Source of the DNA: Escherichia coli
GTDB lineage: Bacteria > Pseudomonadota > Gammaproteobacteria > Enterobacterales > Enterobacteriaceae
Assembly: GCF_003334305.1 (NCBI RefSeq)
Contig: NZ_QOWS01000050.1
Reading direction: 5' to 3' (one strand)
DNA: 4,312 nt
In this document: positions 327 through 4,312 of the stretch, in pieces
How the letters are laid out: the number at the start of each line of letters is the position of its first letter
How positions within the stretch are numbered: the stretch's first letter is position 1
Program-made: the position numbers and the translations under genes
The notes under the pieces: model-generated
Seen by the model: the letters and a program-made list of their open reading frames with translations, nothing else
Databases searched by the model: none
Told to the model about the DNA's origin: nothing

Positions 327-402
327 TGGTGCTGATAGGCAGATTCGAACTGCCGACCTCACCCTTACCAAGGGTGCGCTCTACCAACTGAGCTATATCA
401 GC
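327..402 (-). tRNA. thrT: tRNA-Thr (anticodon GGU), 76 nt with encoded CCA
   Basis: Reverse complement gives GCTGATATAGCTCAGTTGGTAGAGCGCACCCTTGGTAAGGGTGAGGTCGGCAGTTCGAATCTGCCTATCAGCACCA: cloverleaf-compatible, anticodon loop CTTGGTAA, T-loop GTTCGAATC, 3' CCA. Confidence 0.95.
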
Positions 403-408
403 ACATCT

Positions 409-483
<75 letters not shown>

Positions 484-599
484 ATCCTGGAACTCGGCTA
501 CCTGATTTTCATTCTGCACTGAATATCGAGAGAAGCTCTCTTTATTCGAGCCGGTAAGCGAACTTATCGTCTCGGGCTACGCCATCGCGTGGCCGAAAT

Positions 600-684
<85 letters not shown>

Positions 685-692
685 GGACTTGA

Positions 693-768
<76 letters not shown>

Positions 769-782
769 ATCAAGTAGCGCGC

Positions 783-811
783 ATTCTATGGAGACATGCG
801 AGTTCATGCAA
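783..811 (-). promoter_or_regulatory. Sigma70 promoter of the thrU-tyrU-glyT-thrT-tufB operon (-35 TTGCAT, 17-bp spacer, -10 TAGAAT, GC-rich discriminator)
   Basis: Minus strand reads TTGCAT (806..811) - GAACTCGCATGTCTCCA - TAGAAT (783..788) - GCGCGCTACTTGAT, then thrU starts at 768. The GCGCGC discriminator is typical of stringently controlled stable-RNA promoters. Start site inferred about 7 nt downstream of the -10; the leader is very short. Confidence 0.6.
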
Positions 812-915: not shown

Positions 916-944
916 TCAACAATGCGCTCCTGCTAAACCATAAT
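916..944 (+). promoter_or_regulatory. Candidate sigma70 promoter for coaA (-35 TCAACA, 17-bp spacer, -10 CATAAT)
   Basis: tcaaca at 916..921 and cataat at 939..944 with 17-bp spacing; this would give a leader of about 180 nt to the coaA ATG. Hexamer match only; other weak candidates exist (for example tattat at 1013..1018). Confidence 0.25.
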
Positions 945-1129
945 TCTTTTTATCAGATGGAATATCTGTCACATTGCTTTTCAACGATAGCTTCCTGGCA
1001 GAGATTTTTTCTTATTATTCCTCCCCATCTGGTGTTACCCTCCTGCCCATTAACCCATTCAACAGAACTGTGACGCGCCATGGCAAATATCGCTTTGCCG
1101 ATAGAGCTATGACCGCCAGAAACATGCTT

Positions 1130-2080
1130 ATGAGTATAAAAGAGCAAACGTTAATGACGCCTTACCTACAGTTTGACCGCAACCAGTGGGCAGCTCTGCG
1201 TGATTCCGTACCTATGACGTTATCGGAAGATGAGATCGCCCGTCTCAAAGGTATTAATGAAGATCTCTCGTTAGAAGAAGTTGCCGAGATCTATTTACCT
1301 TTGTCACGTTTGCTGAACTTCTATATAAGCTCGAATCTGCGCCGTCAGGCAGTTCTGGAACAGTTTCTTGGTACCAACGGGCAACGCATTCCTTACATTA
1401 TCAGTATTGCTGGCAGTGTCGCGGTGGGGAAAAGTACAACCGCCCGTGTATTGCAGGCGCTATTAAGCCGTTGGCCGGAACATCGTCGTGTTGAACTGAT
1501 CACTACAGATGGCTTCCTTCACCCTAATCAGGTTCTGAAAGAACGTGGTCTGATGAAGAAGAAAGGCTTCCCGGAATCGTATGATATGCATCGCCTGGTG
1601 AAGTTTGTTTCCGATCTCAAATCCGGCGTGCCAAACGTTACAGCACCTGTTTACTCACATCTTATTTATGATGTGATCCCGGATGGAGATAAAACGGTTG
1701 TTCAGCCTGATATTTTAATTCTTGAAGGGTTAAATGTCTTACAGAGCGGGATGGATTATCCACACGATCCACATCATGTATTTGTTTCTGATTTTGTCGA
1801 TTTTTCGATATATGTTGATGCACCGGAAGACTTACTTCAGACATGGTATATCAACCGTTTTCTGAAATTCCGCGAAGGGGCTTTTACCGACCCGGATTCC
1901 TATTTTCATAACTACGCGAAATTAACTAAAGAAGAAGCGATTAAGACTGCCATGACATTGTGGAAAGAGATCAACTGGCTGAACTTAAAGCAAAATATTC
2001 TACCTACTCGTGAGCGCGCCAGTTTAATCCTGACGAAAAGTGCAAATCATGCGGTAGAAGAGGTCAGACTACGCAAATAA
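1130..2080 (+). CDS. coaA: Pantothenate kinase (type I, CoaA), 316 aa
   Basis: Translation from ATG 1130 ([20 protein letters not shown]...) to TAA 2078..2080 matches E. coli CoaA as I recall it, with the Walker A/P-loop motif GSVAVGKST. The six-frame ORF is open back to an ATG at 974, but the 316-aa form starting at 1130 is the one I recognise. Confidence 0.9.
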
Positions 2081-2085
2081 TTTGC

Positions 2086-2116
2086 AGGGGAGCGAATACT
2101 CCCCTTTCTTATTTTT
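2086..2116 (+). terminator. Rho-independent terminator of coaA (stem AGGGGAG/CTCCCCT, loop CGAATA, then T-rich tract)
   Basis: aggggag (2086..2092) pairs perfectly with ctcccct (2099..2105), followed by tttcttattttt. It starts 6 nt after the coaA stop codon. Confidence 0.65.
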
Positions 2117-3074
2117 CTGCACTACGCAGGGATATTTCACCGCCCATCCAGGGTTTTATTATTCCATCCTGCTCAAGTAATAAAGCCCCCTGTTTGTCTA
2201 TTCCGCGTGAAATGCCAAATATTTCTTTATCACCAATGATAAGTTTCACTGGGCGATTAATAAAATTATCCAGCTTTTCCCAGCGCGACAGATAAGGTGC
2301 CAATCCTTCTTGTTCGAAGAGTTCCAACGCAGCACGTAATTCACGTATTAGCATGGCCGCCAACGTATTACGATCGAGATTGATCCCCGCTTCCTGCAGC
2401 GTGATCCACCCCTGATTAACGACACTCTCTTCAACACGGCGCATTGCCATGTTGATCCCGGCTCCAATGACTATTTGCGCCGCATCGCCAGTTTTGCCAG
2501 TCAGCTCCACAAGAATGCCTGCCAGCTTGCGATCCTGCAGATAGAGGTCATTAGGCCATTTGACACGAACTTTATCTGCTCCCAGCTTGCGTAATACTTC
2601 CGCCATCACGATACCGATAACCAGACTTAAACCAATCGCCGCCGCCGGGCCTTGTTCCAGACGCCAGAACATCGACAAATATAAGTTTGCGCCAAAAGGC
2701 GAAAACCATTTCCGCCCCCGGCGACCACGGCCAGCCTGCTGGTATTCTGCAACACAGGCATCGCCCGATTTAAGCTCTCCGATACGATCAAGAAGGTACT
2801 GATTCGTGGAGTCAATAACTGGCAGCACGGCTACACTACCGCCATCCAGCTGACCCAATATCTGTTCAGCATTAAGTAACTGGATGGGCTCAGGCAGGCT
2901 GTATCCTTTACCCGGAACGGTAAAGACATCAACGCCCCAGTCACGCAGTGTCTGAATGTGTTTATTAATAGCCGCCCGGCTCATTCCCAGCGTTTCACCC
3001 AACTGCTCGCCAGAGTGAAATTCACCGTTCGCTAACAGGGCAATCAATTTCAGTGGCACGGTGTTATCCTTCAT
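2109..3074 (-). CDS. birA: Bifunctional biotin-[acetyl-CoA-carboxylase] ligase / bio operon repressor (BirA), 321 aa
   Basis: Minus-strand [50 protein letters not shown]... with an N-terminal helix-turn-helix and the biotin-binding loop GRGRRGRKW; length and sequence match E. coli BirA. Start ATG is the complement of 3072..3074; stop TAA is the complement of 2109..2111. Confidence 0.93.
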
Positions 3075-4111: not shown

Positions 4112-4190
4112 GATGCAAAAACGAGGCTAGTTTACCGTATCTGTGGGGGGATGGCTTGTAGATATGACGACAGGAAGAGTTTGTAGAAAC

Positions 4191-4222
4191 GCAAAAAGGC
4201 CATCCGTCAGGATGGCCTTCTG
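4191..4222 (-). terminator. rrnB distal terminator T2 (stem AAGGCCATCC/GGATGGCCTT, loop TGAC, then T-tract on the minus strand)
   Basis: Minus strand reads AGAAGGCCATCCTGACGGATGGCCTTTTTGCG: a perfect 10-bp stem followed by TTTTT. I recognise it as the rrnB T2 terminator also carried on common expression vectors. It terminates transcripts arriving from beyond the right edge of the window. Confidence 0.75.
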
Positions 4223-4226
4223 CTTA

Positions 4227-4266
4227 ATTTGATGCCTGGCAGTTTATGGCGGGCGTCCTGCCCGCC
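4227..4266 (-). other. 5S rRNA 3'-end-like remnant in the rrnB T1-T2 spacer
   Basis: Minus strand reads GGCGGGCAGGACGCCCGCCATAAACTGCCAGGCATCAAAT; the last 18 nt (AACTGCCAGGCATCAAAT) equal the 3' end of E. coli 5S rRNA plus the first trailer bases, preceded by a 7-bp hairpin (GGCGGGC/GCCCGCC). It is not a full 5S gene; the authentic rrfB would lie beyond the right edge of the window. Confidence 0.6.
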
Positions 4267-4312
4267 ACCCTCCGGGCCGTTGCTTCGCAACGTTCAAATC
4301 CGCTCCCGGCGG

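Follow-up and report, generated by a model that had tools for sequence, protein, structure and literature searches.

The question raised by this locus is where translation of coaA begins in Escherichia coli and, with it, what the open stretch of reading frame in front of its annotated start codon represents. The DNA that was analysed (the window, a stretch of 4,312 nucleotides from contig NZ_QOWS01000050.1 of assembly GCF_003334305.1) is the tufB–tRNA–coaA–birA–murB region of E. coli, located at ~90 min of the chromosome and shown on the strand that runs against the MG1655 numbering. Window positions are converted by the relation MG1655 position = 4,176,156 − window position. The genes are, in window order:

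5' end of tufB, minus strand: first gene in the window
327 to 768, minus strand: the tRNA genes thrT, glyT, tyrU and thrU
1130 to 2080, plus strand: coaA coding sequence, 316 amino acids plus stop, type I pantothenate kinase, with the start as annotated in RefSeq and MG1655
beyond coaA, minus strand: birA and murB, with the rrnB terminator region last in order

The CoaA protein is identical to PDB 1ESM at 316/316 residues (E = 1e-212). It contains the P-loop GSVAVGKST and shows full-length homology to characterised CoaA, which identifies it as a type I pantothenate kinase, the product name that is also given by RefSeq, and Pfam PF00485 (PRK family) is precomputed on its homologues. The region around the start codon is a constant part of the species, with positions 769–1200 being matched in 5421 of the 5426 complete E. 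coli genomes and with an identity of at least 99% in 5343. Scanned against Rfam at E ≤ 1 over its full length, the window gave the four tRNAs and chance hits only, leaving 769–1200 empty.

An earlier note on this DNA described the coaA frame as open from an ATG at 974 onward, with three in-frame ATGs within 24 nt before and at the start codon. The codons concerned are:

941 to 943, plus strand: TAA, the closest in-frame stop upstream of coaA, the frame being open from 944
974 to 976, plus strand: TTG, the first ATG, GTG or TTG of the mechanically called 368-aa ORF, upstream of the mapped transcription start
1109 to 1111, plus strand: ATG that would give a 323-aa form
1124 to 1126, plus strand: ATG at codon -2 relative to the start, corresponding to a 318-aa form if used
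1154 to 1156, plus strand: ATG of Met9, a downstream alternative start yielding the 308-aa CoaA (N-terminomics, PDB 1SQ5)

The frame is indeed free of stops from 974 to 1130, and the ATGs at 1109, 1124 and 1130 are all present. The codon at 974 is a TTG rather than an ATG, and 1109 is where the in-frame ATGs upstream of 1130 begin. The open frame itself is real, but its extent had been underestimated, with 62 open codons counted from 944 instead of 52. An additional in-frame GTG is found at 1070, and the in-frame ATG at 1154, which had been passed over, is the alternative start that has actually been documented. The statement that a strong Shine-Dalgarno (SD) sequence is missing at every candidate start is confirmed by anti-SD duplex energies: for candidate starts within the mRNA the best duplex is no stronger than -2.1 kcal/mol, compared to -12.9 kcal/mol for a consensus SD, while TTG974 reaches -3.3 kcal/mol with a spacing of 11 nt.

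The length of the open frame is not significant, since at least 62 open codons before the start were obtained in 5.3% of 5000 dinucleotide-preserving shuffles of the intergenic region (P = 0.053) and since this region is also open in other frames, over 69 codons on the plus strand and 58 codons on the minus strand. The clustering of ATGs before the start is mildly unusual, with at least two additional in-frame ATGs in 8 codons being seen in 0.9% of the shuffles, in a test that was picked post hoc.

The boundaries of the coaA transcript are the first experimental data that bear on the upstream frame:

1049, plus strand: coaA transcription start site (A), corresponding to MG1655 4175107 (SMRT-Cappable-seq; PMC6131387)
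1049 to 1129, plus strand: 5' untranslated leader of 81 nt, holding the in-frame GTG1070, ATG1109 and ATG1124
1080 to 1112, plus strand: out-of-frame uORF of 10 codons, the TGA of which overlaps ATG1109, present in Escherichia only
2087 to 2111, plus strand: coaA intrinsic terminator, consisting of the hairpin GGGGAGcgaataCTCCCC followed by a T-tract

SMRT-Cappable-seq, in which full-length primary transcripts are sequenced, reports a primary transcript from NC_000913.3 4174045–4175107 on the reverse strand that covers b3974 only, with the start site at 4175107 being backed by 56 reads (PMC6131387, Supplementary Data 1). This one start-site dataset shows transcription of coaA starting at A1049, and a minor upstream promoter may exist in addition. 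The supplements of Cappable-seq, ROSE and Salmonella N-terminomics list no coaA entry. The 3' end of coaA was placed by Term-seq at 4174046, which is window position 2110 (PMC7815308), and by SMRT-Cappable-seq at 4174045 (PMC6131387); at 2110–2111 the mRNA thus abuts the stop codon of birA on the opposite strand. With the 5' end at 1049, positions 974–1048 fall outside the transcript made from this promoter. TTG974, at 75 nt in front of the mRNA 5' end, is consequently untranslatable from that transcript; this codon and the 25 that follow are outside the mapped mRNA, while GTG1070, ATG1109 and ATG1124 are within. The leader differs between genera both in length (60–116 nt) and in sequence, with the exception of its last ~18 nt. 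A structured leader was considered and rejected, the fold of 1049–1165 having a z-score of -0.81 and the leader being unalignable and variable in length between genera. The 10-codon uORF is probably meaningless.

The N-termini of CoaA have been determined by TRAINSPOTTER, a deformylation-assisted N-terminomics approach that enriches formerly formylated N-termini (PMC13245402). As with any mass spectrometry, non-detection does not prove absence, notably for a low-abundance enzyme. The coaA gene is listed as having exactly two co-expressed starts, one at MG1655 4175026 (window 1130) and the other at 4175002 (window 1154), and no entry lies further upstream than the annotated start (PMC13245402, Table S2). 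The peptide for the first spans residues 2–17, and that for the second, listed with the offset '+8 [ATG]', is MTPYLQFDR, residues 9–17 (PMC13245402). The E. coli CoaA chains in the PDB have the same two lengths, with 316 residues in 1ESM and 1ESN (from MSIKEQ) and 308 residues in 1SQ5 (from Met9). ATG1130 and ATG1154 are in the same frame and on the same mRNA (1049–2111). CoaA is thus produced in two forms, one of 316 amino acids from ATG1130, the main start, and one of 308 amino acids from ATG1154. The enrichment for formerly formylated N-termini argues that the short form arises by initiation and not by proteolysis.

The 316-aa product from 1130 that the earlier note had recognised is in agreement with the RefSeq and MG1655 annotation, with PDB 1ESM and with the N-terminal peptide. 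Its statement that two CoaA polypeptides arise from alternative starts was correct as to their existence, but not as to a longer form from an upstream start: the second start is 1154, downstream of the annotated one, and the N-terminal mass spectrometry that it had proposed as a check is available in published data, with N-termini at 1130 and 1154 and none upstream. The E. coli coaA gene (also panK or rts) studied by Song and Jackowski in J Bacteriol in 1992 is the same gene. That work reportedly described two CoaA products of ~36.4 and ~35.4 kDa from two translation starts, and the coaA transcript is said to have been ~1.1 kb, made from a poor promoter. The present locus agrees with this system in its two forms, its monocistronic mRNA of ~1.06 kb and its weak promoter hexamers, and nothing differs in substance. 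We know of no functional difference between the 316-aa and the 308-aa enzyme. The 1130-equivalent codon is ATG in 77 of 81 species and AAA in four Atlantibacter-type loci, whereas the 1154-equivalent is ATG in 67 and ACG (Thr) in 14; with Met9 replaced by Thr, the short form is dispensable in those 14 lineages.

These data bear directly on the possibility that the whole 368-aa ORF is translated from TTG974, or a 336-aa ORF from GTG1070, which would add an N-terminal extension of 20–52 residues to the enzyme. The frame for such proteins is open, pantothenate kinase or 'rts' proteins of 368 and 336 amino acids have been deposited for E. coli and Shigella, and GTG1070 falls within the mapped mRNA. 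However, all detected N-termini are downstream of both codons, GTG1070 is without an SD, and TTG974 precedes the transcript. The comparison between species weighs in the same direction. A one-genome-per-species scan yielded 80 coaA loci of Enterobacteriaceae, with the comparative counts being given over 81. The number of open codons upstream of the start has a median of 11 and a minimum of 2 over the 81 species, and at least 52 are reached in only 9 of the 81 sequences, six of which are from Escherichia. A TGA is present in frame within the upstream stretch of E. albertii, Kosakonia reads a stop followed by KLMSKKEQ before coaA, and Enterobacter and Leclercia read a stop followed by SMLMSKKEQ. 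A conserved frame or amino acid sequence of the extension was not found among these species; the frame is closed in nearly all genera other than Escherichia, with stops and common frame-breaking indels. In the solved homologues (PDB chains from Klebsiella, Coxiella and Mycobacterium) the alignment to the query does not begin before residue 53–62, so that none of them shows homology to the upstream frame. Both these alignments and the median over the 81 species let the N-terminus of the family coincide with the annotated start, without a conserved extension.

Among five Escherichia species, 3 codons of the extension have changed synonymously and 15 non-synonymously, mostly at codon position 2, whereas in the coaA coding sequence of the five species 230 synonymous changes stand against 9 non-synonymous ones, with 225 of 245 changes being at position 3 (Fisher p ~1e-15 for extension versus coding sequence). 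At the same time, the nucleotide conservation of the extension within Escherichia is at least that of the coding sequence. This combination is the signature of constrained non-coding DNA, and it shows the absence of a coding signature upstream. In the comparison of protein-level with nucleotide-level conservation that the earlier note had proposed, the region is conserved as nucleotides and not as protein, and the impression that the 45–52 upstream codons are not a conserved domain was right, as their frame is unconserved and non-coding. Translation of the 368-aa or 336-aa ORF is effectively refuted, with practically no probability left to it.

The conservation upstream of coaA is concentrated in a short element, the parts of which are:

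1003 to 1052, plus strand: nearly invariant block of ~50 nt, containing a T-tract, a -35-like element, an extended -10 element and the start site
1012 to 1017, plus strand: -35-like hexamer TTATTA, matching TTGACA at 3/6 positions, 18 nt upstream of the -10 element
1033 to 1041, plus strand: extended -10 element TGtTACCCT, with TG at 1033–1034 and TACCCT at 1036–1041, the start site being at 1049

In an alignment of 29 genera the block reads GATTTTTTCTTATTATTC-nnnnn-CATCTGGTGTTAMCCTCCTGCCCATTG and is nearly invariant between flanks that are unalignable. Its 26-nt core recurs in every one of the 81 species when up to 3 mismatches are allowed, and its 3' half, TGGTGTTAMCCTCCTGCGCATTG, is shared with two Erwiniaceae. 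The block is single-copy in E. coli, and RefSeq annotation over 1003–1052 is absent in 5421 E. coli genomes. Within the -10 element T1036, A1037 and the final T1041 are invariant in 81 species, with the variant TAACCT occurring in about half of the genera. The 18-nt spacer carries the only variable bases of the block and is 1 nt shorter in some genera, and a C-rich discriminator separates the extended -10 element from +1. The block therefore presents TGn and TAnnnT at the correct distance from the mapped start site, as in an extended -10 promoter, and is interpreted as the coaA core promoter. The -35 and -10 elements are assigned from the position of the start site and would make the promoter a probable sigma-70-dependent one, judging from its motifs. 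The 16-residue peptide of the mechanically called ORF is this promoter read in frame, and in Enterobacter and Superficieibacter the promoter DNA is read in another frame.

The distance from the block to the ATG of coaA varies between 60 and 116 nt across 81 species, and its difference from the E. coli value, taken modulo 3, divides the species into classes of 24, 27 and 30. As no multiple of three is preferred, a reading frame does not connect the block with coaA. With high confidence, positions 974–1129 thus comprise the coaA promoter followed by the 5' untranslated leader and are non-coding; that the frame continues without a stop as far as 944 is a matter of chance and is seen only in most Escherichia.

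The hexamers of the coaA promoter are weak matches to consensus, and a simple consensus promoter scan did not call the block. The scan called a promoter TCAACA-17-CATAAT at 916–944 on the plus strand, which lies outside the conserved block and is incompatible with the mapped start site, as well as a second site on the minus strand that is also outside the block. Several motifs considered by eye were likewise rejected: a sigma-54 motif with the wrong GG/GC spacing, a sigma-32 motif (CCCCATCT) that is present in Escherichia only and incompatible with the start site, a sigma-28 motif (GCCGATAG) at 1098–1105 that is unconserved, and a FadR/PdhR-type operator, CTGGTgttACC, the palindrome of which is broken by C1038A in about half of the genera. 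An NtrC genomic-SELEX peak reported for the coaA/thrU spacer (PMC8743547) maps to ~843 of the window, in the upstream region of thrU, and not to the block.

An alternative use of the block would be a small protein or RNA encoded on the minus strand. The minus strand of the invariant block carries a perfect AGGAGG followed, at 10 nt, by an ATG at 1028 that opens an ORF of 15 codons, and the block is conserved far above its surroundings. This spacing is long for an SD, though, and neither the residues that follow the ATG nor those behind the lysine run are conserved. In Enterobacter, Leclercia and Lelliottia the frame is broken by a 1-nt deletion that falls between the minus-strand ATG and the conserved AATAATAAG, for which reason the small ORF was rejected. 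Rfam has no match in the block, and the measured plus-strand start site is exactly where a promoter in the block would put it. A minus-strand product is accordingly very improbable compared to the core promoter of coaA.

Like other extended -10 (TGn) sigma-70 promoters, that of coaA has a TG one base before TAnnnT, a poor -35 element and a start site 7–8 nt downstream. It differs from these in its conservation over -23 to -16 and over -7 to +4. Such conservation goes beyond the usual contacts of RNA polymerase and beyond what belongs to a weak housekeeping promoter, and could mark the site of a regulator. To our knowledge, no transcriptional regulator is known for the rate-limiting step of coenzyme A synthesis.

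The leader ATGs at 1109 and 1124 raise a further possibility, namely that ATG1124, ATG1109 or both give rise to a minor or condition-specific third proteoform, of 318 aa and 323 aa, respectively. Two short elements near the start are relevant here and in the initiation at 1154:

1122 to 1124, plus strand: ACA, reported MazF cleavage site (PMC5001579, Table 1)
1139 to 1144, plus strand: AAAGAG, weak SD-like stretch within the coding sequence, ~9 nt upstream of ATG1154

Both ATGs are in frame and inside the mapped mRNA, with no stop between them, but neither has an SD. The three clustered ATGs sit in a short stretch around the start codon, ACATGCTTATGAG, that is conserved, Erwiniaceae included. 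The evidence differs for the two codons. The 1109-equivalent is ATG in only 29 of 81 species and another codon in 52, and folding predictions place AUG1109 in the paired part of a local hairpin (-11.1 kcal/mol for the sequence around it, P unpaired ~0.04). The 1124-equivalent is ATG in 66 of 81 species, GTG in 2 and another codon in 13, so that ATG1124 is conserved more than expected of a leader triplet. In the four Atlantibacter-type loci that have AAA at the 1130-equivalent, the ATGs at -2 and -7 are kept, so that initiation at the -2 ATG is probably possible there. On the other hand, one-nucleotide indels lie between the 1109- and 1124-equivalents in several genera, and in loci of the Kosakonia type a stop precedes the start by two codons, with AAG at -2. 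N-terminomics detected only the 1130 and 1154 N-termini of CoaA, despite reporting extensions of -1 to -5 for 17 other starts (PMC13245402). Starts such as that of rpoN at -2 in the same table show that short upstream extensions are detectable by this approach.

For MazF, cleavage has been reported at an ACA that precedes the coaA AUG by 8 nt (PMC5001579, Table 1); after a cut at ACA1122, only two nucleotides would separate AUG1124 from the newly made 5' end. Within the tandem start ACAUGCUUAUG, AUG1124 would then act as a reserve start or as one used under stress, MazF cleavage being an example. On balance a third proteoform is unlikely, and the two forms from 1130 and 1154 are the preferred reading.

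For these two forms the following course of expression is proposed. From a probable sigma-70-type promoter, of which the -35 (TTATTA) is poor and the -10 (TGtTACCCT) is of the extended kind, transcription starts at A1049, giving a monocistronic mRNA of ~1.06 kb that ends at the terminator near 2110. Ribosomes then start at AUG1130, probably without an SD, in an unstructured, A-rich region, to produce the 316-aa enzyme, and a second initiation at AUG1154 (Met9), with a weak GAG ~9 nt upstream, produces the 308-aa enzyme. SD-independent initiation at 1130 is suggested by the predicted folds, in which the 48-nt window of AUG1130 (-3.3 kcal/mol) is the least structured among the candidates and the codon itself is mostly unpaired. 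Conservation between genera covers the final ~18 nt of the leader together with the first codons, CAGAAACATGCTTATGAGTATAAAAGAGCAAAC. AGAGCA, which overlaps the SD-like stretch upstream of ATG1154, is near-invariant across genera.

This arrangement resembles known cases of in-frame alternative initiation giving N-terminal proteoforms, such as infB (IF2 alpha/beta/gamma). Closer still are infA and secB, which have a +8 start in the same N-terminomics table (PMC13245402) and share with coaA two ATGs in the same frame, the detection of both N-termini and a shorter form that lacks 8 residues. The start biology of coaA is in this respect ordinary and already known.

The six possible CoaA products of 368, 336, 323, 318, 316 and 308 amino acids have all been deposited in public databases, for example the 368-aa protein for Shigella sonnei and E. 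coli O55:H7, the 336-aa protein as 'rts' (AAA76838.1) and the 323-aa protein for CFT073 and UTI89. The variant lengths are choices of gene callers and not experiments, and the start ambiguity taken up in the earlier note is therefore a long-standing inconsistency in gene calling that is settled by the experimental data. As in other spurious 5' ORF extensions arising from prokaryotic start mis-annotation, an open upstream frame invites longer gene calls; coaA is unlike the usual case in that experimental start-site and N-terminal data decide.

The open upstream frame explains why one enzyme carries six different N-termini in public databases. The lesson is that an open frame upstream of a start, even when strongly conserved at the nucleotide level, can be promoter and leader and not coding sequence, and its relevance is mostly one of annotation hygiene. 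Beyond this, there is a small chance that either AUG1124 is a functional second start or the near-invariance of the block TGGTGTTAMCCTCCTGCSCATTG in Enterobacteriaceae and Erwiniaceae reflects a regulator or a special promoter mechanism. If true, a start at AUG1124 would make the 318-aa protein a third form of CoaA, and a regulator or special mechanism at the block would control the rate-limiting step of coenzyme A synthesis. The unusually conserved block may for that reason be of interest for the study of how CoA synthesis is set at the level of transcription.

The tandem starts of coaA, ATGCTTATG at window 1124-1132, are conserved, and the ATG two codons upstream of the annotated start (the -2 ATG, ATG1124) is found in 66 of the 81 Enterobacteriaceae species compared. 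In four Atlantibacter-type loci (L032, L038-L040) the equivalent of the annotated start, ATG1130, is replaced by AAA, so that, as read from the sequence, CoaA in these species must begin at a different codon; the -2 ATG, the -7 ATG (ATG1109) and Met9 (ATG1154) are all kept there. All six possible coaA starts (974-2080) are represented among annotated pantothenate kinases in public databases (database proteins P0001, P0002 and P0016-P0019), with lengths of 368, 336, 323, 318, 316 and 308 aa. Two of these, the products of 318 aa and 308 aa, occur in at least 1000 contigs apiece.

Upstream of these starts, a nearly invariant block of about 50 nt (window 1003-1052) is shared by all species compared (81/81), and its 3' half, TGGTGTTAMCCTCCTGCSCATTG, is found in Erwiniaceae as well. 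In E. coli, the block occurs as a single copy and carries no annotation. Its position is compatible with a coaA core promoter around the mapped A1049 transcription start site. However, RNA polymerase contacts alone would demand less conservation than the block shows, and a regulator acting here is therefore possible. A short reading frame inside the block was also considered:

981-1028, minus strand: 15-codon ORF (AGGAGG, 10 nt, then ATG)

This ORF is probably a coincidence of promoter sequence, since a 1-nt indel breaks its frame in Enterobacter, Leclercia and Lelliottia.

On the other side of the coaA/thrU spacer, the divergent promoter is readable from the sequence:

783-811, minus strand: promoter of thrU-tyrU-glyT-thrT-tufB

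An A/T-rich stretch lies upstream of TTGCAT (811..806), which is followed by a 17-nt spacer, TAGAAT (788..783) and a GCGCGC discriminator. An NtrC genomic-SELEX peak reported in this spacer maps to about window 843 (PMC8743547).

At the 3' end of coaA, 34 nt (2078-2111) hold two stop codons on opposite strands and a terminator-type hairpin:

2078-2080, plus strand: coaA stop
Within 2078-2111: GGGGAG…CTCCCC hairpin with T-tract
2109-2111, minus strand: birA stop codon

The coaA mRNA 3' end (2110-2111) extends to the end of the convergent birA, which suggests a terminator that is shared by both genes or bidirectional. Further downstream, the murB stop and birA start overlap as ATGA (3071-3074), and the window closes with ~120 nt (4190-4312, minus strand) that probably correspond to the rrnB T2 terminator region.

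Two further features lie in the coaA leader:

1080-1112, plus strand: out-of-frame 10-codon uORF, its TGA overlapping ATG1109 as ATGA
1122-1124, plus strand: ACA triplet overlapping ATG1124

The uORF is restricted to Escherichia, has no Shine-Dalgarno sequence and is partly base-paired by prediction. As for the ACA triplet, coaA is listed in a MazF-regulon table with cleavage 8 nt upstream of the AUG (PMC5001579). MazF cleavage at ACA 1122-1124 would yield a nearly leaderless coaA mRNA starting at AUG1124.
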